In this document: positions 12,143 to 43,457 of the stretch, piece after piece | How positions within the stretch are numbered: the stretch's first letter is position 1 | Layout: each line of letters starts with the position of its first letter | Origin: Candidatus Cloacimonadota bacterium | Lineage (GTDB): Bacteria > Cloacimonadota > Cloacimonadia > G963667145 | NCBI GenBank assembly: GCA_963667255.1 | Contig: OY762940.1 | Location: 576,001-640,000 of the forward strand | Length of the DNA: 64,000 bases | Reading direction: 5' to 3' | Program-made: the position numbers and the translations under genes | The notes under the pieces: model-generated | Seen by the model: the letters and a program-made list of their open reading frames with translations, nothing else | Databases searched by the model: none | Told to the model about the DNA's origin: nothing

Positions 12143-14054
12143 ATCGAACAGCAGGGATATTATTCTTTTTGAAGGGAAATCTTACAATCCCGTAGTCGGC
12201 TCTTCGGTAATTTCGGGGATTTTTGCCAATAAAGGCGGTAATATCAACCGCTACGATGCTGTGATGAGCACCATAAGCACAAAATACAAATCTCATTTTT
12301 TCAAGGGTGTCTATTCTTCGGCTGAATTGGAATTGAGATTGCGAGAGATAGACAATTTTTATCTTTATGTCAAAGCTATGTTGGAGAGGGTCGCAGAGCC
12401 GGGGCACGAATGTTTTGACCTTTTGACTTCCGGAGACGCCAAGTCGTTTGCTCATTCTGTGGGGAGCATCGGTGGAGACAAGAGAAAACAAGCTTTTTTG
12501 AGTTATATTCAGGGTGTTTACTTTATAGGAAAATATGCTTTTAATTTGGCTATTCCCATGTTCGAAAAAGCTGTTCAGTTAGACCCGAATACTAATAAGT
12601 ATCGAAGCGAGTTGGTGGCAACTTATATTAAGTTGGAAGATTTGAGCAAGGCTAAATCTATTGGTGAGAGCAGTCTTAATAATCAGGCTTCGACTTCCGA
12701 TACATCTGAATTAGCTGTAACTTATGCTTATTTGATGATTATCTACGCTAAACTGAAAGACTTTGAAAAAGCGATGATTTGCAAGAAGCGGGCAGAGAGT
12801 TTGGGGATTAATCAGGGAAAATACGAGTGGGACAATTTCCGCTATGCCAAAGTGCTGAAGCTGTTGGGCGACACTTTGTATTGCTGGGGACAATACGATT
12901 CGGCGAAGGCTTATTACAACAAGGCTCTGACTTTTAATTCGCGGATGATGGAGGCAAATCGCAGTGTTTTATTGGATTTGGATTTGATGTGTGCCAATTG
13001 TGATGTGTGGATGAAAACTGGTCGATTTGGCAAAGCTGAAGAGTATGTGAAAAAGGCTGAAAACTCTTTATATTCGCTATCTAATGGGAAATCTCTTCGT
13101 AAGGCTTGGGTTTTCTCTTTGAATGGGAAATTGCAAGAACTTCGTGGAGATTATTCGCAGGCTTGCGGATATTATCGAAGTGCAGTTGTTGAGCTGGAGG
13201 GGAGTGTGGGTCATTCCCATTTGTTGGCTGGAGTGATTTTTGCCGACTATGCCAGATGCAATGCCATAGGCGGTGTGGGTGATAGTGTTGGCGGTTCTCT
13301 TGCTAATATCGTTTCAGCTTGTAAGGGTGGATTGGTATTTTCCGATGATGAAAAGTATAACAAATATTTTACTTGTGGCAGAGCGAAAAAAAATCTGAGA
13401 GATTATAGTTCTGCTGTCAAATATTATAAAAAAGCTCTGAGTAATTATGCGGATGAGTTTGGGAAATTTAGTTTCAAGGTGTTCACTGCTCAAAAATCGA
13501 TTGCCAAGTGCTATTTGAAATTGGGCAAAACGAGCAAGGCGAAGAAATATATTTTGGCGGCTATCCAGACATATCAAGGGCTGTGTTTGCCAGATTATCC
13601 CGAATATGCAACTTTGCTTATGTTGTATGGAGATGTTTTGTTGGCGGACAAAACTCTGACTGAAGCGGTGAATTTTTATGAAAAAGCTCTGAAGATGTCT
13701 TCGCAAAATTACGGTTCGGTAAATGCAATAACGGCAAAGGTTTATGAGGTTTTGAGCAATATCTATACCAAGCATGAGGTTTACGATAAGGCGATTTCCT
13801 ATCTGAACGGAGTGCTTTCTTTCAAGAGTGGGCTGCATGGTGCACGCGAGCTGGATTTTGCTTCCGATTACCGTAGTTTGGCCTCGTTGTGGCACAAAAA
13901 CGGGAATCTTACCAAAGCGAAAGAGTATTACTATAAGGTGTATCAAATCTATTTTAGGGATTTGGGCGTTTCTCACAAGGAGACCGAGTCTGCCAAAAGA
14001 GATTTTGAGAACATTTCGCAGGCATTGGAGAATAAGTCGTCTAAAAAGAAGTGA
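12129..14054 (+). CDS. Tetratricopeptide repeat protein (kinesin-light-chain-like TPRs)
   Basis: Repeated A..YY.KAL and G..H...A motifs. Overlaps the ispG stop and the plsC start. Confidence 0.8.
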   Translation: MGTSKSNSRDIILFEGKSYNPVVGSSVISGIFANKGGNINRYDAVMSTISTKYKSHFFKGVYSSAELELRLREIDNFYLYVKAMLERVAEPGHECFDLLTSGDAKSFAHSVGSIGGDKRKQAFLSYIQGVYFIGKYAFNLAIPMFEKAVQLDPNTNKYRSELVATYIKLEDLSKAKSIGESSLNNQASTSDTSELAVTYAYLMIIYAKLKDFEKAMICKKRAESLGINQGKYEWDNFRYAKVLKLLGDTLYCWGQYDSAKAYYNKALTFNSRMMEANRSVLLDLDLMCANCDVWMKTGRFGKAEEYVKKAENSLYSLSNGKSLRKAWVFSLNGKLQELRGDYSQACGYYRSAVVELEGSVGHSHLLAGVIFADYARCNAIGGVGDSVGGSLANIVSACKGGLVFSDDEKYNKYFTCGRAKKNLRDYSSAVKYYKKALSNYADEFGKFSFKVFTAQKSIAKCYLKLGKTSKAKKYILAAIQTYQGLCLPDYPEYATLLMLYGDVLLADKTLTEAVNFYEKALKMSSQNYGSVNAITAKVYEVLSNIYTKHEVYDKAISYLNGVLSFKSGLHGARELDFASDYRSLASLWHKNGNLTKAKEYYYKVYQIYFRDLGVSHKETESAKRDFENISQALENKSSKKK

Positions 14055-14737
14055 TGAAAAAAAAACTTTATTTCACTATTTGGGCGTTGATTTTTTTGAC
14101 TTCGGGAATTCCGTTTGTTCTCTATCCGTTGCTCTCTCCTATGAGAAAACTCAGAAATGCGGTTATCAGAGCGTTCGCTTTTTTTTATGCTCGCTTGAGC
14201 ATCCTCGCTACAGAGAGCAAATTTCAGATTGTGGGGAGAGAGAATCTGCCCGAGACGAATTTTCTGGCTGTTTGCAATCATCAGAACTTACTCGATATTC
14301 CCGTGATTATTTGTGCTATTCCGCGGACAATTGGGTTTATTGCCAAGAGCGAGTTATACAAAGTGCCTATCTTGGCGATGTGGATGAGGCTGCTGGGATG
14401 TATTGGATTGAAACGGAGTAGTGCCAAGGCTTCCGCCGATGTTTTTCGTAAAGGCGTGAAGAAATTGAAATCCGGTCAAAATCTTATAGTGTTTCCAGAA
14501 GGAACTAGGAGCAGAGATGGCAAAATCAAGAAATTTAAAGCGGGAAGTTTCAAAATGGCTGTGTTAGCGGAAGTTCCGGTAGTGCCGATTACTTGCATAG
14601 GGACAAACAAGCTGTTTTCGCCAAACAATGTGATAAGAGTGATAATCAATCCTCCCGTGAGTTCTGCGGGCAAATCTACCAAAGAGTTGGCGGAAGAGGT
14701 GCAAAAGGTTGTGGAGAAGGGGTTGACGGTTAGTTGA
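14051..14737 (+). CDS. plsC: 1-acyl-sn-glycerol-3-phosphate acyltransferase
   Basis: NHQNLLD (HxxxxD), FIAKSEL, FPEGTRS, VPVVP. Confidence 0.93.
   Translation: MMKKKLYFTIWALIFLTSGIPFVLYPLLSPMRKLRNAVIRAFAFFYARLSILATESKFQIVGRENLPETNFLAVCNHQNLLDIPVIICAIPRTIGFIAKSELYKVPILAMWMRLLGCIGLKRSSAKASADVFRKGVKKLKSGQNLIVFPEGTRSRDGKIKKFKAGSFKMAVLAEVPVVPITCIGTNKLFSPNNVIRVIINPPVSSAGKSTKELAEEVQKVVEKGLTVS
14671..14724 (+). repeat. plsC 3'-end direct repeat, copy 1 (54 bp)
   Basis: CAAATCTACCAAAGAGTTGGCGGAAGAGGTGCAAAAGGTTGTGGAGAAGGGGTT; 52/54 identical to 17095-17148. Confidence 0.95.
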
Positions 14738-14840
14738 AACGATTAACCTTCAATTTATTACTAATTTTATTTAGTTCTGTAAACTTCAACATCAGTAGAT
14801 TACCCAAATTACATATAGCCTTTGTTAGCGTTTCGTGCTT
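14738..14840 (-). mobile_element. attC-like recombination site (partial) downstream of the DUF3883 gene
   Basis: On the minus strand AAGCACGAAACGCTAAC lies just after the stop codon. It is an inverted repeat of 16892-16907 and is followed by an AT-rich stretch ending at the plsC stop. Confidence 0.55.
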
Positions 14841-14842
14841 TT

Positions 14843-15622
14843 TTATTTCGGAGTTACTTGCCAAGTAATAGCGTCAAAGTTGAAATCTGAAAACAATTCA
14901 TTTTGACTTATTATTTTGACATCTCCACGCCTTGTTTCTCTGTTAAAATTGTAAACTCGGTAAATAAAGGCAGAATCTTCGTATTCCTCAAAAAAGTTTT
15001 TTTCATTTTTACTCATATAAAATGGTTGATTGAAATCACCGCTTGTAGTTTTAACTTCAATATAACGAGGAGAACCGTCATCATTTATCGAGGAAATATC
15101 ATAACCTAAGCCATCTCCTTGTAATCGACTCAAATGCTGAACATTTTCCGTTGCTTTCGTTCTGTCTATTGAAAGAGCATCAATTAAGCGGTCAATTTCA
15201 AACTCTTTTATAAATTCTTCACCTTGGTCGCCTATTTCATTATTTCGGTCTCTCACTTTTTCCCAATCAACTTTACGAGCAATAAAGCGTCTTGTTTTTC
15301 CCTTTATTTTTGTTACTTCCACAGGTTGAATAACCGTTTGTGAAATAGGGTTTAGCAGAGAGAATTTGGCAGGGAGTGAACTTTTGTTAACTACAAAACC
15401 TTCATCATATGTCTTTATTGTTTCTCTTTGGTGAGCAACAATATTTCCTATCCGTTGAATGATAAGAACTTCGATTCGTGTTGTCGAGGGTATATTGTCC
15501 TCTTCACTAAATTCTAAAACTGTGTGTAAAAGTTGTTTTACTTCTGATGTGTTTAATTCACCATAAACGGTTAATAATGGTTTAATTGCCCGTCTTATTT
15601 CTGCTTCTGTATGTGCTGCCAT
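14843..15622 (-). CDS. DUF3883 (NOV C-terminal) PD-(D/E)xK nuclease, putative restriction endonuclease
   Basis: IG..GEEF...FE, GDGLGYDI.S, YIEVKTT, F.MS.NE, IYRVY. N-terminal helical (wHTH/Mrr_N-like) region. Confidence 0.85.
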   Translation of the reverse strand: MAAHTEAEIRRAIKPLLTVYGELNTSEVKQLLHTVLEFSEEDNIPSTTRIEVLIIQRIGNIVAHQRETIKTYDEGFVVNKSSLPAKFSLLNPISQTVIQPVEVTKIKGKTRRFIARKVDWEKVRDRNNEIGDQGEEFIKEFEIDRLIDALSIDRTKATENVQHLSRLQGDGLGYDISSINDDGSPRYIEVKTTSGDFNQPFYMSKNEKNFFEEYEDSAFIYRVYNFNRETRRGDVKIISQNELFSDFNFDAITWQVTPK

Positions 15623-15631
15623 TACTCTTTC

Positions 15632-16831
15632 TTAATAGTTCGTTATCATTAAATGTTCTGTCTCTCGGTTATTTCTATTCATAAAACTAACCAAATAGGT
15701 TTTGTCAAACGATTGGATTTTTAATCCTTTGTTATTGTATAATTCAAAAATGAAATCAGTATTTTTAATTATCATCATCCATTTTGCTTTGCATTTATTG
15801 ATAAGATATTTCGCTAATCTTTCTTGGTCTTTTCTTGTAAACTCGTTTTTTGCATAAGTGCTAAACTCACTGTCGTATGGTGGGTCAAGAAAAACAAAGT
15901 CATTCTTCGAAGGATTGTGTTTATAAAAGAAATCTTCAAAATCTATATTCTCAATTATTGTACTGTCAAGTAAAGATTTTAGTTCTTTTGTTTTTAGATA
16001 ATCAACTTTTTTGGAAAAGTTTTTTCGATTATAAGCAATTCCTCCATAAGGGACATTAAAATCACCGTTTGAATTATATCGAAACATTCCACTATAGGCG
16101 AAATTTCTAATAAAAAGAAAGATAGCAGATTTAAAAGCGTTATTAATTCTATATTTTTCTGTGTTATTGTAGATGTGACGAAAATGCATATAGAAAGCAC
16201 TTTTAAGTGCTGTTTCTATATTGTCTAAAATATCGTTATTTGGTAAAACTTGTTTGATTTTTTCAAGTTCCTTCATTCGTTTTATTTTACGAATTAGATT
16301 TATTTTAATTTCTTTAATAAAGTTTTCAATATTGAAGTTGAAGATAGTAGAAAACATTCCATTAAATTCTTCAGCATGAGATAAAATAAATTCAAAAAGG
16401 ATATCTTTTAATTTGGTTTCATCAATCAAGTCATCAGAATACTTTTTGTATGTTATTATAAAAAAATCTGAGTTTCTTTCAATTACGGAGGTCAGTAAAT
16501 TCCAATTATGTATAATCTCATCTACGGCTTTGAAAAAAAGTTGTTTATTACCATTTGTAATACTTTGATACAAATCAATTAACTCATCTGATTTGTCATT
16601 AATGTAGTATTTGTTTGCTTGTAAAGCTGTGTACACAGCTCCACCTCCAACAAATGGCTCAAAATAGTTTTCAAATTTTTCGGGGAGATTAGGAACAATA
16701 TATTTTAATTCTTGTTCTTTTCCTCCAGCCCATTTTATAATTGGGTATAACCGTCTTGCCTTAACATAATTGCCTATACCTAATCCAATTTGGTTATAGG
16801 TTGCAACAGGTTCTTGTACTATATTATTCAT
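15632..16831 (-). CDS. Dam-family (D12 class) N6-adenine DNA methyltransferase with a large internal insertion
   Basis: IKWAGGK, YFEPFVGGGA, IND, GMFRYN..G.FNVPYG, FLDPPY. Confidence 0.93.
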   Translation of the reverse strand: MNNIVQEPVATYNQIGLGIGNYVKARRLYPIIKWAGGKEQELKYIVPNLPEKFENYFEPFVGGGAVYTALQANKYYINDKSDELIDLYQSITNGNKQLFFKAVDEIIHNWNLLTSVIERNSDFFIITYKKYSDDLIDETKLKDILFEFILSHAEEFNGMFSTIFNFNIENFIKEIKINLIRKIKRMKELEKIKQVLPNNDILDNIETALKSAFYMHFRHIYNNTEKYRINNAFKSAIFLFIRNFAYSGMFRYNSNGDFNVPYGGIAYNRKNFSKKVDYLKTKELKSLLDSTIIENIDFEDFFYKHNPSKNDFVFLDPPYDSEFSTYAKNEFTRKDQERLAKYLINKCKAKWMMIIKNTDFIFELYNNKGLKIQSFDKTYLVSFMNRNNRETEHLMITNY

Positions 16832-16891
16832 ATTACAAAGTTAATTTTTTCAAGTAATTAACAATGCTATTGTTGAAAAGTTGTCGGTTCT

Positions 16892-16935
16892 AAGCATGAA
16901 CGCTAACATCTGTATAAACTCAATGGTATTTATCC
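16892..16935 (-). mobile_element. attC-like core site at the 5' boundary of the methylase-nuclease cassette
   Basis: Minus strand reads ...GAGTTTATACAGATGTTAGCGTTCATGCTT; GTTAGCG is complementary to CGCTAAC at the far end of the cassette. Confidence 0.55.
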
Positions 16936-16974
16936 TTTCAAATTGGCATGCTAAGCGCAATTACATTTAGTTTT

Positions 16975-17065
16975 CTTTATATTTATTTCAAAATTTATTT
17001 GAGGCTAAAAATCCAAGAATATATGTCAAGCCAAAAATCTCAAATCCTAGATAAGCTCTCTAAAA
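16975..17065 (-). repeat. Promoter-like direct repeat, copy A (~91 bp)
   Basis: Near-identical to 18977-19068. The minus strand contains TTGACA-16bp-TAGCCT pointing at the methylase cassette. Confidence 0.9.
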
Positions 17066-17094
17066 CTTTTCCCGAAGATAGGGATTTCAGTATA

Positions 17095-17148
17095 CAAATC
17101 AACCCAAGAGTTGGCGGAAGAGGTGCAAAAGGTTGTGGAGAAGGGGTT
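17095..17148 (+). repeat. plsC 3'-end direct repeat, copy 2 (54 bp)
   Basis: CAAATCAACCCAAGAGTTGGCGGAAGAGGTGCAAAAGGTTGTGGAGAAGGGGTT; matches 14671-14724. Confidence 0.95.
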
Positions 17149-17217
17149 AATTTTAAGTGAAGTTTCCCAATCCCCTATTTCAGTTTTGTAGAGTTTGCAA
17201 AGAATACTTTGAAGAAT

Positions 17218-18696
17218 TTATTCTAAATAGATAATGCGGTCAGCAAGAGCAATAATTTCATCATTCTTTGGAGCAAGTTGTGCATCATTATTTTCTGCGA
17301 TGAAACCAATTATGTTAATATCTTGGTCAATTTGATATTGTTTCAATTCTTTAAATTTAACTGGCTCTTTAAATCCAAAATGTTCTAACTTATTTTCTTT
17401 GATGACACGCCCATCTAAATTCAACATTTCATAAAGCAAAGGAGAAATATAAGGATGTCTAATACAATTTGAAATCAAATTTGCATCAATAGATTCTTTG
17501 TATATGATTTCATCACCTTTTATTTTGTCTCTTATTATTTCAGAATTTTCTTGGTTAATTATTTCTGCAATTGTATGGACATTTTTATTTTCTTGTTCAA
17601 TATTAAAAACTGTTAGTACAGTTCGCATATCAACATTTTTTTGGGGTTCATTTCCTTGATACTCTGCAAATATAACAGCAAGGCTACAGTCACAAATATT
17701 AACTTTTCTCAATGTATCAATACTTGAATAATCGCCATTAAAATAAATAATTCCATTTAAGCTTGGGTTTTCTTTTTCAGTTACTAAAACAATTCTTTTA
17801 GAATAGAGTTTCTTGTTTTTCAATATTTCTTCGATTACTTTTGAAGTGGAGGATGTATATCCGCAAAGAACAATATGGTCTTTAATAGTTAGTTTCCCAA
17901 GTTTTCCTTTTTTAATGTTACTCATAATCTCTCCCGATTTAGTTGATATAGTAGAAATAAAAAAACTAATAAACGAAATATTTGCAATCAAAGTAAATGA
18001 AGAAAAAATTTTGCCCATTACAGTAGTTGGGGCATCATCACATATCCCAACAAGTTTCAATGTATAATTTAAATAGTGAAAGTAAGAATTTGCATTACCT
18101 ACCTGTGATTCTGACAAAAATAGTGCAAATGAATTAATTATTACAATAAATAATGTTCCCAGTAAGAGAATAGCTATCAAAAAGTAGGATTCTTTGAAAC
18201 TCCTTACTAAAATAGAAATATTTGAAAAAGATTTTTTTACTTTTAATAGTCTAATAAATTTTAAAAATTTAATAAACCTTAATAATCTACAGGTTCTAAA
18301 AAATCGAAGAAACCGAATAATTGGAATAAGAGAAACTAAATCGATAATTGGAAAGGGAGATAAAATCCATTTAACTTTATTTGTAATAGCATAGATTATA
18401 GAACCATCTTCGTCTTTTATATCTTCTATGAAATCGGAAGAAATATAAAAGCGAGTTAGATATTCAATAGCAAAGAATACTGTTAAGGAAGTATCTATAT
18501 TGAATAAATAATTCGGTAAGTTTAAATCTGAAAAAAATAATTCAAAAAATGTAGAAATAACAGAAATAAAAATAATAAGGAGCAAAATTAAATCTACATA
18601 TACTCTTTTGGAATTATTTTCACTCTCTAACCACCAGTAAAGAAAGCCCTTTAATCCTTTTTGCTGTTTTTCCGCATATCTATCTAATTTTGACAT
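17218..18696 (-). CDS. 6TM voltage-sensor ion channel with RCK (TrkA-N-like) domain and degenerate pore filter
   Basis: S2 FAIEYLTRF, S3 IIDLVSLIP, S4 RFLRFFRTCRLLRFIK, RCK HIVLCG and D.RTVLTV. Pore reads LVGICDDAPTT instead of TVGYGD. Confidence 0.85.
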   Translation of the reverse strand: MSKLDRYAEKQQKGLKGFLYWWLESENNSKRVYVDLILLLIIFISVISTFFELFFSDLNLPNYLFNIDTSLTVFFAIEYLTRFYISSDFIEDIKDEDGSIIYAITNKVKWILSPFPIIDLVSLIPIIRFLRFFRTCRLLRFIKFLKFIRLLKVKKSFSNISILVRSFKESYFLIAILLLGTLFIVIINSFALFLSESQVGNANSYFHYLNYTLKLVGICDDAPTTVMGKIFSSFTLIANISFISFFISTISTKSGEIMSNIKKGKLGKLTIKDHIVLCGYTSSTSKVIEEILKNKKLYSKRIVLVTEKENPSLNGIIYFNGDYSSIDTLRKVNICDCSLAVIFAEYQGNEPQKNVDMRTVLTVFNIEQENKNVHTIAEIINQENSEIIRDKIKGDEIIYKESIDANLISNCIRHPYISPLLYEMLNLDGRVIKENKLEHFGFKEPVKFKELKQYQIDQDINIIGFIAENNDAQLAPKNDEIIALADRIIYLE

Positions 18697-18705
18697 TTAC
18701 TATTT

Positions 18706-18966
18706 TTAATAAAGTCCAATAATTTTACCAATAATAACGGGAATAGGTTGGTCATTTCGGTCGTAGGTGTTTGAAGAGTTAGCTCCAGATTTTGGTTTTA
18801 CATGTGTTGCAGATACTTCCCAAGAATTTGAAGATGATGCTCCTGAGCGTGGTTTGATTTTCTTGCCGTCAAATTCCCAAGAATTTGATAGCAAGGCACC
18901 GCTTTTTGGTTTTAATTTTTTGCCGTCCCACAGCCAATCGCGTGGTAACTCAATTTTGTTAGCCAT
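18706..18966 (-). CDS. Small protein with three ~19-aa tandem repeats
   Basis: WLWDGKKLKPKSGALLSNS / WEFDGKKIKPRSGASSSNS / WEVSATHVKPKSGANSSNT. AAAGGA RBS; 9 nt upstream of the channel gene. Confidence 0.8.
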   Translation of the reverse strand: MANKIELPRDWLWDGKKLKPKSGALLSNSWEFDGKKIKPRSGASSSNSWEVSATHVKPKSGANSSNTYDRNDQPIPVIIGKIIGLY

Positions 18967-18976
18967 AAAATTTTTC

Positions 18977-19068
18977 CTTTATATTTATTTCAAAATTTAT
19001 TTGAGGCTAAAAATCCAAGAATATATGTCAAGCAATAAGTCCTCAAATCCTAGATAAGCTCTCTAAAA
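18977..19068 (-). repeat. Promoter-like direct repeat, copy B (~92 bp)
   Basis: Near-identical to 16975-17065. TTGACA-16bp-TAGCCT is followed by an RBS and the ATG of the repeat-protein gene. Confidence 0.9.
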
Positions 19069-19078
19069 TTTTTTCTAT

Positions 19079-20041
19079 CTATGAAGGGCGATATCTATAT
19101 TTGGTTAATCTTTTCTCGCCTATTTTTATTAAGATTTTATTTTCGACTGCATTTTTCAGGTCGCGACTCGCTGTTGCAGAAGAAATATCTTTATTATGTC
19201 TCATATAATCTTGACGCGAAAATTCATTGTTGCCAATAAAACTTTTGAATAATTCTATTCTATCTTTATCTGTTGGGCTCAATTGTTGGGTTCTCAACAA
19301 ATCTTCAAGAGCGAAGTTAATGATTTCTAACATAAATTCTATAAAAAGGGTAGATTCTCCTAAGCTATTAGATTTTCCAAGAACATTGTAATAGTTCTGT
19401 TGTTTTTCTTTTATCAAAGTTTCAATTGGTAAAAATTCAAATACTGGGGAATACTCTTTTAAAATCACTGTTTGCCATAGTCTTCCCATTCTTCCGTTTC
19501 CATCAATGAATGGATGGATGAATTCAAATTCGTAATGAAACACGCAACTCTTTATCAAGATAATGTCATTGTCGTTTTTTAAATAATCGAATAGATTTTT
19601 TAGTAAAGGGTAAACCATATCTCCAGGAGGAGCCAGATGTGCTAATTGATTTCCTTTTAAAATCCCAACTGCCGTATTTCTTATATTGCCAGCATTATCA
19701 ACGAGGTTATTCATCAGAATTTTGTGAGCCGAACAAAGTGACTTCATATCATAAACTTTGAATTTATTTAGATTTTTGTAAACATTGATGGCATTTTTTA
19801 CCTCTATAATATCTTTTTCAGGGGCTAAAACTTTTTTGTTGTCTAATAAATCCGTTATTTGCTCAATAGTCAGAGTGTTCCCTTCGATTTCTAAAGATGC
19901 TTGAATTGTTTTAATTCTGTTCTTTTTTCTAAGTTCTGTAGGGGGCTTTGTAAGACGAGCAGCCTTTATTTCTCCAATTTTTTCCGAAATGGAAGAGATT
20001 AAATTTAAAATTTTGTTTGTTATTTTATAAGGAGGTTTCAT
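19079..20041 (-). CDS. Fic family protein with C-terminal winged HTH
   Basis: SLEIEGN, canonical HPFIDGNGRMGR Fic motif, C-terminal SRQDY...ISSATASRDL. Confidence 0.93.
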   Translation of the reverse strand: MKPPYKITNKILNLISSISEKIGEIKAARLTKPPTELRKKNRIKTIQASLEIEGNTLTIEQITDLLDNKKVLAPEKDIIEVKNAINVYKNLNKFKVYDMKSLCSAHKILMNNLVDNAGNIRNTAVGILKGNQLAHLAPPGDMVYPLLKNLFDYLKNDNDIILIKSCVFHYEFEFIHPFIDGNGRMGRLWQTVILKEYSPVFEFLPIETLIKEKQQNYYNVLGKSNSLGESTLFIEFMLEIINFALEDLLRTQQLSPTDKDRIELFKSFIGNNEFSRQDYMRHNKDISSATASRDLKNAVENKILIKIGEKRLTKYRYRPS

Positions 20042-20052
20042 TTTTCCAAGTA

Positions 20053-20080
20053 AGTGATAGTATCATATGATACCATCACT
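20053..20080. promoter_or_regulatory. 28-bp palindromic operator upstream of the fic gene
   Basis: AGTGATAGTATCAT|ATGATACCATCACT, 13 of 14 pairs, 11 nt from the fic ATG. Confidence 0.7.
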
Positions 20081-20318
20081 CGTCACTAATTGTTTTGATT
20101 TTTTCATTTTAATTGCTCTATATACCCTTTATTTAATCTATAGTAAAAAATTATGGCTATTGGTCAAGCAAAAACAAGTTGATAGTGTTAAAAATTCAAA
20201 GTAATTTTTCGTCTAAATTTTAATCAGCAAATCTTATTTCCTCTTGCTAATCACGCTGTTTCCCACAATCAATAAAAAAAAGACTTGCTTGGATGAACCG
20301 TGCTAATTTCCTGTCTCT

Positions 20319-20723
20319 ATGTTGAGAAATTATAAAGCGATTATAAAGAAATTTTCTCTGCTCTGCAGGTGCTTTGCCCTTATGTTTATGCTCATTGGGT
20401 GTAAGCCTGCTCCTGTATCCGGTGAGGCGATAAAACTGGATATTGTCAATGGTTGCGGGCAGATAGACGCCGCTATCCAGTTCAAGGAGGTCGTCCCTAC
20501 CGATAAGCTTATGGTTCTCTCCATCAGTAACGCTTCCAATTTTAATTACGACAAGACGATTATCGTCAGTCATACGGAAGACAAGGTGGAGATTAATATA
20601 GTGAAAACTTTGCTCAAAATCGATGAAGTGGTGGTTATAATTGACACGGTGAGTGTTACGAAATTCACGGTTTACTTGGGTAACGATTATAAAAAAATTA
20701 TAGAAAGGATTAGAAATGACTGA
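20319..20723 (+). CDS. LytR C-terminal domain-like exported protein
   Basis: Hydrophobic leader ending LIGC, IKLDIVNGCG...AA, NA..F.YDKT.I, TVYLG.DY. Upstream of rsfS. Start uncertain. Confidence 0.6.
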   Translation: MLRNYKAIIKKFSLLCRCFALMFMLIGCKPAPVSGEAIKLDIVNGCGQIDAAIQFKEVVPTDKLMVLSISNASNFNYDKTIIVSHTEDKVEINIVKTLLKIDEVVVIIDTVSVTKFTVYLGNDYKKIIERIRND

Positions 20724-21027
20724 AAAATTAGTGTTGTGGTTGGATGAAATGAAGGCTATTGATATCAAACAATACGACCTAAGACAAAAGGTTTCTTATG
20801 CGGATATGGTGGTGGTGTGCACTGCCAAAAACGAAAATCATGCGAAAGCGATTGCCGAGTATCTTTTGGAGAAGTCGAAAGAGTCCGGTATAGCGATATT
20901 TAATAAAGAAGGGTTTGGCTCCAAATGGGTGCTGTTGGATTATTCGGAAGTGATAGTGCACATCTTCTTGGAGGAGACCAGAAAATATTACGATTTAGAG
21001 AATTTTTGGAGTGGGACGAATGATTAA
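20716..21027 (+). CDS. rsfS: Ribosome silencing factor RsfS
   Basis: KAIDI...D, EG...KWVLLDY..VIVHIF....R.YYDLE.FW. Confidence 0.93.
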   Translation: MTEKLVLWLDEMKAIDIKQYDLRQKVSYADMVVVCTAKNENHAKAIAEYLLEKSKESGIAIFNKEGFGSKWVLLDYSEVIVHIFLEETRKYYDLENFWSGTND

Positions 21028-23912: not shown

Positions 23913-23922
23913 AGCTTTTTTG

Positions 23923-23963
23923 AAAAAAACTTCTTTGCTTTAAAAAGGTGAAGAAGTTTTTTT
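23923..23963 (+). terminator. Intrinsic terminator after dpaL
   Basis: AAAAAAACTTCTT...AAGAAGTTTTTTT inverted repeat ending in a T run. Confidence 0.65.
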
Positions 23964-23997
23964 ATTTAAAGTGTATTCCCACTGTTAGTTTTGAGAT

Positions 23998-24779
23998 TTG
24001 GTAAAAGAGATGATTGAAAATTATTATGATAGCAGGTTTGAGTTAGGGCATTTTGAGATGAATGAATTAGGGATAGCATCTCCGGTTACGATGTTGACAC
24101 TTTTGGAGGAAACAGCAGCCGACCACTGTCTTTTTGCTGGTCATGGCTTATATGAATTGGAAAGTCAAAAAATAGGCTGGGTTTTAATTTCCGGCTTTCT
24201 TCAAATGGATAGATACCCTCGCTATAAAGAGAAAATCGTTATTCGAACTTGGATATCCAGCTATACCTCTATCAAGGGTTTTCGAGAAAACATAATATAC
24301 GATGAAAGTAACAACATTTTGGGAAGAGGGAAAAGTATTTGGGTTTTTTTTGATATTGAGAAAAGGAGACCGACAAGAATCTTTGAAGATATTAAAACCA
24401 AATGGTCATCTTGCAGTGTGGAAAGTATTGATAAGGACATTTCCAGAAGATTGCGGGAGTTGAGGATTTTGATTGGTCAAAGCAGTTCAAGGTTAACAGA
24501 TACGATACGGATATTTACGGACATCTGAATAATATTCGATATTTGCAATGGGTAGTCGAATCGATACCGGAAGAAATCTATATTAATCACTATTTATATT
24601 CAATTGATGGCAGATTTACTGCCGAGGCACAACTTGGGCAAACAGTTGTATCGCTGACCAAAAATGAATCTGTGAGAAATCTCAACGATGACAAAATGTT
24701 TTCTCATACAATAAAAATTTCCACAGAGGATAAAATTTGTGCGACTGCTAAAACTGTTTGGAAGAAAATAAAAGCATAA
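23998..24779 (+). pseudogene. Acyl-ACP thioesterase (FatA/B-like) split by a 1-nt frameshift near 24445
   Basis: First hotdog domain is in ORF 23998-24528. The catalytic segment VNRYDTDIYGHLNNIRYLQW lies in the frame of ORF 24543-24779 but upstream of its start. Confidence 0.85.
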
Positions 24780-24801
24780 AAAACAACGATTTTAAAGATT
24801 T

Positions 24802-24830
24802 TTCGCCATTTTGGCGGGGAAGTTTTTTTT
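24802..24830. terminator. Possible terminator between convergent thioesterase and ecfT genes
   Basis: TTCGCCA-TTT-TGGCGGG hairpin followed by a T run. Confidence 0.5.
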
Positions 24831-24832
24831 GT

Positions 24833-41921: not shown

Positions 41922-43457
41922 ATGAAAAAAATTGGAGAAATTGTTAAGGGTAAAAATAGAATTAAAAGTTTGTTATTGTTCCTAATTGTAAGTTCGGTCT
42001 TTTTAAATATTTTAACATTAGATTACAGCCATGATTGGGGAGGAGATTTTGCTGGATATGTTGGTCAAGCAAATGCTCTTGTAAATGACAATGTTGAGAA
42101 ATTCATAAAAGATTCGGAATTTCGATGTATGTTTTCTGAATCGAAGGTGATAGGTCCTGTCGCTTATCCTTGGGGATACCCTCTAATTTTATATTTTCCC
42201 ATCAAAATTTTTGGAATAAATTTTTTAATTTTAAAAGTAGTAACTTTCATTTTTTTTATTGCTTCTTTATTTATAATTTATTTTTTGTTCAAAAATGAAA
42301 TATCCAAAATAAATAGTTTGTTATTGATACTTATTTTTTCGGCTTCACCTTTCTTTTTTAGTTTTAAACAAAATGTGTTATCAGATATTCCTTCTCTGTT
42401 TTTCGCACTACTTTCCCTTTTATTAATAAAAGTAATTTACTATAATGATGTAAACAAATTATCTCACAAAAAAGAATTTTTTCTATTGATTCTATTAGGA
42501 CTGTCTATTTTTTTGAGCCTATTCATAAGAACAAATTTAATTATTCTTCTACCTTTAATGTTTATAGTTCAGGTATTAAAATATAAAAAGACAATAGTGA
42601 ATAAGAAGTATATATTTCATTTTCTTTTACCGTATTTAATTGTTGGTTTTTCCTATATGCTTACAACTATAGTTTTGCCAATTTCATCATATTCTAGCGT
42701 ATTATCCTTTGGGCTTTTTAAACTATTCCCAATAAGAGCCATAAGAAATATTTATTTTTATTTGTATGTTTTTAGTATTTTTTGGGGGAATTGTTCAGAA
42801 TTTTCTAAACTAATGATGAGAGCTAATATATATGGTTTGGATTTATTTGCAGTAATGCATGGATTTTTTTCAGTTTTTTTTGTAGTAGGATTTTTGCACT
42901 CTGCAAAAGAAAAGTCTTTTTTTGTATTTTTTTTCTTAATTTCTATCGTATTGTTTATATGTTTTCCTTATTTACAAGGATTAAGATATGTTGTAACATT
43001 GATCCCTTTTTATTTATTATTTATATTTAAAGGAATTCTAAAAATAAAATTTAACAAGATAATTGGAGTTAGTTCTCGGAAGATTTTGTATTATGTTTCG
43101 TTGCTTTTGTTTTTGTGCTTTTTCATTCAAAATATTGGGTCTATTGTTGTTGGGAAGACTAAGTATGCAAATAAAGTTGATGGTCCTTTTTCAGAAACTT
43201 CTCAAGAATTGTTTTCTTATTTAAAGAAGAATACTTCTCAAGATTCAATTATAAGTTTTTTTAAACCAAGGGTTCTTTATTTTTTTACAAAAAGAAAATC
43301 TTTTGAAATAAATAGTGTCCCCTATTTTCAAAAAGTTAACCCTAACTATTATGTGTTTTATAAAGGTGGCGATCAAAAAATGCATTTATTTTTGAAAAAT
43401 AATTATAAGCTAATTTTTGAGAATAGATGTTTTGAAGTTTTCAAAATATTTGATTAG
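41922..43457 (+). CDS. GT-C fold (ArnT/PMT-like) membrane glycosyltransferase, very AT-rich
   Basis: WGGDFAGY, YPWGYPL.L, VLSDIP, IRTN, RY...LIPF; many TM helices. Confidence 0.8.
   Translation: MKKIGEIVKGKNRIKSLLLFLIVSSVFLNILTLDYSHDWGGDFAGYVGQANALVNDNVEKFIKDSEFRCMFSESKVIGPVAYPWGYPLILYFPIKIFGINFLILKVVTFIFFIASLFIIYFLFKNEISKINSLLLILIFSASPFFFSFKQNVLSDIPSLFFALLSLLLIKVIYYNDVNKLSHKKEFFLLILLGLSIFLSLFIRTNLIILLPLMFIVQVLKYKKTIVNKKYIFHFLLPYLIVGFSYMLTTIVLPISSYSSVLSFGLFKLFPIRAIRNIYFYLYVFSIFWGNCSEFSKLMMRANIYGLDLFAVMHGFFSVFFVVGFLHSAKEKSFFVFFFLISIVLFICFPYLQGLRYVVTLIPFYLLFIFKGILKIKFNKIIGVSSRKILYYVSLLLFLCFFIQNIGSIVVGKTKYANKVDGPFSETSQELFSYLKKNTSQDSIISFFKPRVLYFFTKRKSFEINSVPYFQKVNPNYYVFYKGGDQKMHLFLKNNYKLIFENRCFEVFKIFD

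Follow-up and report, generated by a model that had tools for sequence, protein, structure and literature searches.

Two alternative fillings of one chromosomal slot stand in tandem beside plsC in a Cloacimonadota bacterium, one of them apparently a cassette behind an attI-like site

We analysed a 64-kb stretch of the genome of a Candidatus Cloacimonadota bacterium (the window), in which two unrelated gene modules stand in tandem between plsC and a lytR_C-like gene. Coordinates refer to the window unless they are prefixed G000:C1, which denotes the whole single-contig genome (G000) of 1,587,896 nt. The plus-strand plsC is followed by five minus-strand genes, encoding a DUF3883 nuclease and a Dam-like methylase (module 1), an RCK-domain channel and an 86-aa repeat protein (module 2), and a Fic protein; the lytR_C-like gene and rsfS then follow on the plus strand (Table 1). 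The original prediction placed here a fixed expression slot in which unrelated genes are exchanged between conserved flanks, and most of its observations held. The 54-bp repeat of the plsC 3' end lies where it had been placed, with 52/54 nt identical; both mismatches fall within the first 11 nt, and the remaining 43 nt are perfect. A second repeat, R, covers the promoter region of each module. It had been given as about 91 bp and is indeed present in two copies, while its extent is larger, at 100 nt in one copy (R1) and 101 nt in the other (R2), which are 94% identical with perfect stretches of 57 nt and 27 nt. Both copies have the predicted minus-strand TTGACA-16-TAGCCT, at 17029 and 19031, which our consensus promoter scanner omits because the -10 hexamer is weak. 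The whole 1.59-Mb genome holds exactly two copies of the plsC-end repeat and of R (E 1e-19 and 2e-38, respectively; next matches E at least 0.007), and the search for further copies of R that had been proposed thus added none. The cargos belong to different families and are as AT-rich as had been described, with a GC content of 30.1% in module 1 and 28.4% in module 2, against 43.5% in plsC.

The tandem is real. In runs X1 and X2, which come from one sample and are possibly the assembly's own source, contigs break exactly at the repeats, and a 134-nt contig bridges 17002-17135 (R1, the novel join J and plsC copy 2) at a depth of 56.9 in X1 and 61.2 in X2. Single-copy neighbours in the flanks and modules have depths of 53.6-78.6 in these runs, and the 57-nt core shared by the two R copies has 137-140. 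Because the junction contig sits at genome depth, the arrangement is not an assembly merge; a merge was one of the outcomes that the original prediction had named as its refutation, and both the junction and the modules were found at full depth. A dip in the depth of J and module 2 in X1 and X2 (57-61, against 65-77) might be read as excision; it is within the noise of other contigs, and we did not use it.

The interval from plsC to rsfS varies among relatives between the same flanks, as had been anticipated. In four of five congeners (G002-G005) the slot is empty, with lytR_C and rsfS within about 200 nt of plsC. The closest congener, G001 (79-86% identical in core DNA), holds other AT-rich cargo there. 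Its gene beside plsC encodes 284 aa, bears a cassette-like R'' box at its end, and has a promoter with 16 nt in common with that of the Fic gene in G000; Fic itself is missing from the slot in all five congeners. The cargo of G001 breaks after the plsC stop codon and not at 14724. The last 13 nt of plsC in the window are the ancestral end, being of equal length and alignable in G001, where the alignment reaches 14739. A 20-kb block is inverted in G001 relative to G000, with other AT-rich cargo at both break points. Of the two break points of this inversion (L038/L031, G001:C1:873700-903400), one falls in the plsC slot and the second beside a gene that, read by eye, is tRNA-Arg-like; the cargo at its two ends includes an ion channel only 28% like that of the window. 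A plsC search of the metagenome contigs returned six distant loci (29-48% identity), none of them useful.

A second sample of the same study (S2, run X3) shows the two cargos in a different arrangement. In X3 a contig starting at 18972 runs unbroken through R2 and Fic (depth 10.8), and module 1 (depth 10.1) and its leader (depth 11) end on the same 30-nt word as this contig. The shared word requires R2-type letters at 16970 and 16974, and module 1 therefore sits on R2-Fic in this sample. Most S2 cells carry plsC, module 1, R2 and Fic without module 2. Module 2 occurs in X3 at a depth of 3.8, identical to the window, and the upstream plsC at a depth of 6. By depth arithmetic the leftover in the J bin matches a 36-nt plsC piece at depth 5, and J therefore seems uncovered; a branch from plsC to module 2 is present, and a pruned J contig fits as well. 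Three loose-end tags from X3 have no exact place in G000 (best 17-18 of 20). Two readings remain, namely a strain with module 1 only (allele alpha) together with one with module 2 only (allele beta), or an alpha-only strain together with a minor tandem strain whose J contig was pruned. Since both cargos use the same two flanks under either reading, modules 1 and 2 are alternative alleles of one slot. The variable expression slot of the original prediction is thus borne out by the empty slots of G002-G005, the other cargo of G001, and module 1 on R2-Fic in S2.

Module 1 appears to consist of a promoter, an attI-like site and one integron cassette, and would thus be an orphan integron head. The leader (16907-16984) and a truncated attC (14830-14735) that suggest this anatomy were missed in the original prediction, as was Fic, the third cargo of the slot. 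The methylase-nuclease unit is likely a travelling cassette. An R'' box begins 13 nt past the nuclease stop codon, and the 9 nt from 16907 are its reverse complement. The right arm of the putative attC (~30 nt at its end) is missing, and what remains is joined directly to the plsC stop codon with a 4-nt overlap. This attC family has nine homologues in seven other genomes; in eight of the nine the sequence goes on into a right arm, and folding is seen in three (z -3.3 to -3.9). The window copy has no fold (z 0.06 and 0.47), and no intact, foldable attC lies behind the cassette in the slot. A first generic attC scan, which gave no hits genome-wide, was too strict and was not used. Among the matches listed, the nuclease has 119 homologues at 80-89%, the named ones from Bacteroidota; it was found in none of the 231 other genomes of the host's group and in no viral contig. 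Contigs 94-98% alike occur in a bioreactor run. The same methylase-nuclease pair lies on the Psychrobacter plasmid pA3H9, there with a separate TdeIII-family restriction endonuclease, and a blastn search of plasmids gave three partial methylase matches only. GATC is strongly avoided throughout the G000 genome (observed/expected 0.09), and GTAC likewise (0.15).

The leader recurs within the genome and the class. A model built from seven G000 copies and run on 141 class genomes matches 30 of them, G000 included, and in 29 aligned loci the conservation of the leader ends at GTT. We considered whether the leader might be the right arm of an attC and rejected this, there being no left arm upstream in the 29 loci. 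The six further G000 leaders are at G000:C1 250032(+), 306141(+), 347432(+), 485401(-), 685509(-) and 1228192(-), with a weaker partial one at 243089-243130(-); each follows a TTGAC-type box and precedes AT-rich cargo, for example methylase- or restriction-like genes. The short open reading frame of the window leader is broken by a stop at codon 2. Of 26 leaders (the 29 loci less three that were incomplete or truncated), 16 have TTGAC no more than 100 nt upstream, compared with 2 when the opposite strand is read; R1 is therefore most likely the promoter of such a promoter-attI pad. Under a strict test, three of the seven G000 leaders have a core complementary to an R'' box near a stop codon, compared with 5 of 1500 random GTT sites. 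One more G000 leader has its 9-nt R'' match farther from the stop, and four of seven leaders of relatives show complementarity at 9-10 nt. At one orthologous locus (L136, G001:C1:802132-804200; G000:C1:684684-685660) the two species have the same promoter and leader, 85.7% identical over 154 nt ending at the G, and different cassettes behind it, with both attC ending in GTTAC.

At four of the 29 loci, all in relatives and not in G000, the leader ATG is preceded at a distance of 1-15 nt by the end of a tyrosine recombinase gene in the same orientation, or of what is left of its 3' part. Two such leader-linked recombinases are at G125:C293:6117-6950 and G003:C1:942128-943165. This recombinase is without the ~35-residue IntI insertion, the additional domain of IntI described in PMC4889954. 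It was not found in G000, in which the only two candidates are XerC/D-like genes at 32-33%. A 55%-identical copy in G003 heads a cassette array that shares a 188-aa cassette with G000:C1 306206-306772, behind the leader at 306,141; the site behind the G003 integrase scores only E 0.84 with the leader model. This integron-like array behind a non-IntI tyrosine recombinase (L113, G003:C1:936000-943165) lies beside a comM-like gene. The leader is absent or weak in G002-G005, and the model found nothing convincing beside 24 loci picked with TIGR02249. By comparison among loci, the leader can be called attI-like, as it is conserved to the G/TT point, integrase-adjacent in relatives and followed by variable cassettes. 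We found no account of multiplied solo attI sites or of this recombinase in the literature covered, which leaves out most subscription journals.

The cargo of module 2 does not appear to be a cassette, because the 86-aa gene replaces the leader and no attC was seen after the channel gene. The 86-aa gene starts 7 nt behind R2, where the leader open reading frame would stand. Its product belongs to a small unnamed family with WEFDGKK-type repeats. The structural model is beta-rich, with a predicted local distance difference test score (pLDDT) of 70, and has no match in the PDB at E<=0.001; the protein was found in none of the 231 other genomes of the group.

Table 1. Features of the plsC slot and of four comparable duplication scars elsewhere in the genome
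Feature	Coordinates	Strand	Remarks
plsC (acyltransferase), left border of the slot	14051..14737	+	PF01553
plsC 3'-end repeat, copy 1 (native)	14671..14724	+	perfect core 14682-14724
Putative truncated attC of the cassette	14735..14830	-	R'' box 14830-14824 and ~95 nt of a ~130-nt attC family
NOV_C/DUF3883 nuclease, 259 aa, second cassette gene	14843..15622	-	PF13020; PADLOC matches PDC-S36, PD-T4-1
Dam-like (D12-class) N6-adenine methyltransferase, 399 aa, first cassette gene	15632..16831	-	PF02086, MTase_II; motif I then DPPY
attI-like leader	16901..16984	-	ends at the G/TT crossover, G at 16907
R1, predicted promoter and ribosome-binding region heading the leader	16971..17070	-	TTGACA at 17029
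J, novel join	17071..17105	+	24 unique nt and an imperfect 11-nt match to plsC 14671-14681
plsC 3'-end repeat, copy 2, left border of the channel allele	17095..17148	+	X3 contig branches from its plsC word into module 2
Ion channel with RCK domain, 492 aa	17218..18696	-	PF00520, PF22614, PF02254
86-aa beta-repeat protein	18706..18966	-	10 homologues; no Pfam match
R2, second copy of the promoter region	18973..19073	-	TTGACA at 19031; abuts the Fic stop codon
Fic-domain gene (SoFic-like), third cargo of the slot	19079..20041	-	own TTGACC-16-TACTAT at 20167-20140
lytR_C-like gene and rsfS, right border	20319..21027	+	directly follow plsC in G002-G005
Scar, aminotransferase start	G000:C1:3906-4689
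Scar, SMR gene end	G000:C1:110956-114779
Scar, rfbD-like start	G000:C1:722823-724939
Scar, rpmE-like promoter and first five codons	G000:C1:1539543-1540484		105-nt duplication

How the two alleles came to stand in tandem can be reconstructed with some confidence. It is probable, if well short of certain, that the two alternative fillings were joined once by host recombination, the first of them being a predicted promoter, an attI-like site and one cassette. Allele alpha would have arisen when the methylase-nuclease cassette was inserted at G/TT behind the R promoter and the leader; its anatomy is visible in the window, and the enzyme was likely the non-IntI tyrosine recombinase found directly before the leader in relatives. 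The alpha attC would later have been cut and fused to the plsC stop codon. In allele beta the 86-aa gene and the channel gene would have replaced leader and cassette, the borders falling inside the last plsC codons on one side and right at R's ribosome-binding site on the other. A cell of the beta type may then have received alpha-type DNA, likely by transformation, which paired with its chromosome in plsC and upstream of it. The free donor end, J, would have been attached by way of an imperfect 11-nt match lying 54 nt short of the point where the shared sequence stops, which would duplicate the plsC end and leave two R copies. Both repeats would be explained at once, because one long-homology crossover and one join at 17095-17105 suffice. 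RecA crossing between either pair of repeats is predicted to collapse the tandem to one module; between the plsC copies it would alter only the end of PlsC, as had been proposed, replacing the last 3 residues by 14 others.

That both plsC-repeat mismatches cluster within the first 11 nt is reminiscent of the microhomology of 3-10 bp at joints formed by homology-facilitated illegitimate recombination (HFIR), as described in PMC3240628; the match at 17095-17105 is itself imperfect, at 9 of 11, and the donor sequence was not found. Genes for ComEC (PF03772) and DprA (PF02481) were found above cut-off in G000; such genes are common (10 of 14 control genomes). J weakly resembles the stretch that immediately precedes the lytR_C promoter in G001 (15 of 18 nt alike, the best match in 40 kb), which would be expected if J was the right border of the donor. 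The joining is most likely an ordinary recombination scar of the 'long target duplication' kind. At four other G000 loci cargo stands between two copies of a gene end or gene start, the duplications being 71-161 nt long (Table 1). The names of the genes at these scars (SMR, rfbD-like, rpmE-like, aminotransferase) are provisional and come partly from motifs. At the rpmE-like locus, a two-gene nucleotidyltransferase-like cargo borrows the rpmE-like start.

Several points weigh against this account. The proposed origin of J is weak, with seven other 15-of-18 matches by chance in 1.59 Mb. The window's R1 and leader differ from the alpha head in X3 at about a dozen positions, against 5 differences in 2215 nt of the cassette body, and the donor would therefore be an unseen third allele. 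HFIR, in the cases described in PMC3240628, usually deletes recipient DNA and does not duplicate it. The short contigs can neither order the modules nor separate an integrated circle from a linear join. A beta-only chromosome is only one reading of the X3 depths, the depth of 6 of the upstream plsC fitting alpha-only cells with a minor tandem strain at least equally. Finally, the test of promoter spacing (9/246 at spacer 16, against 1.8% in coding controls, with a weak -10 hexamer) did not decide.

Module 1 could instead have arrived as a circle of plsC end, cassette, leader, R1 and J, integrated by a single RecA crossover of the Campbell type in the 54-nt plsC homology. Integration of such a circle yields exactly the order seen in the window, and the unitig graph of X1 and X2 permits a circle as well as a linear tandem. 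We nevertheless consider it unlikely, for module 1 and J show no depth excess over the chromosome (J 57 and 61, neighbours 54-79), the circle would first need the same illegitimate J join, and no protein of module 1 belongs to a replication, recombinase or transposase family. We rate slightly lower the possibility that unequal crossing-over at the plsC microhomology first gave two copies of the slot on a single chromosome and that the cargo of one copy was replaced afterwards. R1 and R2 are 6% apart, and the two heads therefore had separate histories, which would suit a duplication followed by replacement, as would the resemblance of J to the right border of the slot in G001. This explanation requires two events at exact borders instead of one, and module 1 in X3 sits on an R2-type head with Fic, so that both cargos share a flank. 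An assembly merge of two strain alleles would account for the allelic behaviour of the modules in another sample, and X1 and X2, as the possible source of the assembly, are not independent support for the tandem; the join as its own contig at single-copy depth (57, 61) and both modules at full depth make a merge very improbable.

The original prediction went beyond a variable slot to a dedicated system for swapping and stacking, and this part of it did not hold up well. A trans-acting site-specific system that used the plsC end and R as attachment sites would explain why the break points of the two cargos coincide at both ends. GTT, the triplet of integron crossovers, stands at the end of the plsC repeat, and integrases can use genomic attG sites (doi 10.1101/2022.09.11.507474). 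We rejected the plsC GTT as an attG crossover, however, as it is on the wrong strand, the cargo lying on the strand opposite, and the attC of the cassette is cut in its middle. The repeats end in microhomology and inside the attC, not at crossover points of the recombinase type, and unrelated duplication scars of a similar kind are found at the four other loci. G001 breaks at a different point, behind the plsC stop codon. As had been noted, no recombinase lies in the window; the genome has only two PF00589 genes, both outside it and XerC/D-like by alignment, no PF00239 match, and no IntI above cut-off. R was not found in any of the five congeners with the queries used. In the 231 other class genomes it has no convincing match (only 24-54-nt AT-rich ones, E 2e-5 to 9e-4), and neither the metagenome nor the viral contigs contain an exact one; a single 22-nt match in genome contigs, inside a Gracilibacteria open reading frame, was judged to be chance. 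In a folding test neither R nor the leader, the truncated attC or the J region gave a significant fold, and the plsC repeat does not fold either; an imperfect inverted repeat around plsC copy 2 was rejected as asymmetric and without a fold. An Rfam scan of 14000-20800 gave a single match, also judged to be chance. We regard a dedicated system as improbable.

Among known arrangements, the locus resembles the insertion of restriction-modification units with long target duplication (Furuta et al. 2010, PMC2853133), in which a methylase-nuclease unit of <20 kb without a mobile-element gene is bracketed by a direct repeat of >30 nt of single-copy chromosomal sequence; the Haemophilus cases described there have 46-nt repeats. 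We compared four points, three of them from PMC2853133, and found agreement on two, the 54-nt duplication (43 nt perfect) and the insert of 2.4 kb without a mobile-element gene. As to a restriction-modification pair, a methyltransferase homologue is present and its partner is a DUF3883 nuclease, not a proven restriction enzyme. As to a strain with a single target free of the insert, X3 shows the branch from plsC to module 2 and seemingly no cover of J, which a pruned J contig would explain as well. The locus also differs in that the insert is an alternative allele of the same slot, hence the second (promoter) repeat, and bears an attI-like site. With HFIR (PMC3240628) it shares long homology on one side, short microhomology on the other and the presence of competence genes; it differs in its 54-nt duplication in place of the usual deletion, and the event itself is a reconstruction. 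The resemblance to the intI-Pc-attI head of integrons (PMC4889954, PMC9668308, doi 10.1101/2022.09.11.507474) lies in insertion at G/TT, a complementary R'' and a long attC. It extends to the archaeal integrons described in PMC9668308, in which attI is directly downstream of the integrase. The differences are that G000, which is without the enzyme, has seven attI-like sites with a predicted promoter ahead of each, and that the leader-adjacent recombinase of relatives is without the IntI domain. No IntI with its additional domain stands beside an array here, nor is there an intact foldable attC, as in a complete integron. Clusters of attC that have no integron-integrase (CALIN) and single such sites (SALIN) are, in the definitions given in these three sources, recognised by attC only; a CALIN comprises a minimum of two attC without intI, and the slot has one, truncated. 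The slot encodes no integrase of its own, as an integrase-encoded genomic island with attL and attR would. In the flexible genomic islands described in PMC4033161 and PMC4898812, too, one fixed site with conserved DNA on both sides takes up cargo that differs from strain to strain, either through exchange by homologous recombination or through tandem addition. The present slot is small (2-6 kb), with neither a tRNA nor a surface-polysaccharide cluster, and its alternatives, a methylase-nuclease unit and a channel, are functionally unrelated and not the equivalent exposed structures of replacement islands.

Other variable sites were noted in passing. A second cargo slot lies at 23913-24832, after an ammonia-lyase-like gene, and contains a split thioesterase-like open reading frame; in G001 the same slot (L038, G001:C1:884322-886901) holds a restriction-modification unit, at whose head the lytR_C promoter region stands in inverted copy, and in G002-G005 it is about empty. 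At 41922-43457 an AT-rich (25% GC) membrane-protein gene of 511 aa is inserted, which is missing from the aligned G001 segment. At about G000:C1 838,800-844,200 lies a CRISPR-like array whose repeat is 30 nt long and in which several blocks of spacers are duplicated. Multi-copy elements of ~1.1 kb (>15 copies) and ~1.3 kb are probably insertion sequences (e.g. G000:C1 29716-30826 and 45662-46972); neither lies in the plsC slot.

The tandem is a natural snapshot of two alternative alleles of one slot, kept together without a mobile-element enzyme, and one of these alleles is still seen alone in another sample; this much is known biology. The wider interest is in the leader, which may be the attI-like site of Cloacimonadia-type integrons whose recombinase is without a domain thought necessary for attC recombination. 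It occurs in seven copies, without the enzyme, in one small genome, and has differing cassettes at the same locus in sister species. An orphan attI-like pad together with an atypical recombinase is a testable variant of the integron. More tentatively, and we hold this to be possible rather than likely, these sites could form a distributed, enzyme-borrowing integron, in which promoter-attI pads, separated from a recombinase without the IntI domain and scattered over the chromosome, are reloaded when that recombinase passes through, and loaded pads spread and stack between strains by transformation, as at plsC. If a non-IntI enzyme does recombine the leader with attC, tools based on IntI would miss a whole class of integrons, and the cassettes of many CALIN or SALIN would be no relics but units that are expressed and can be reloaded.

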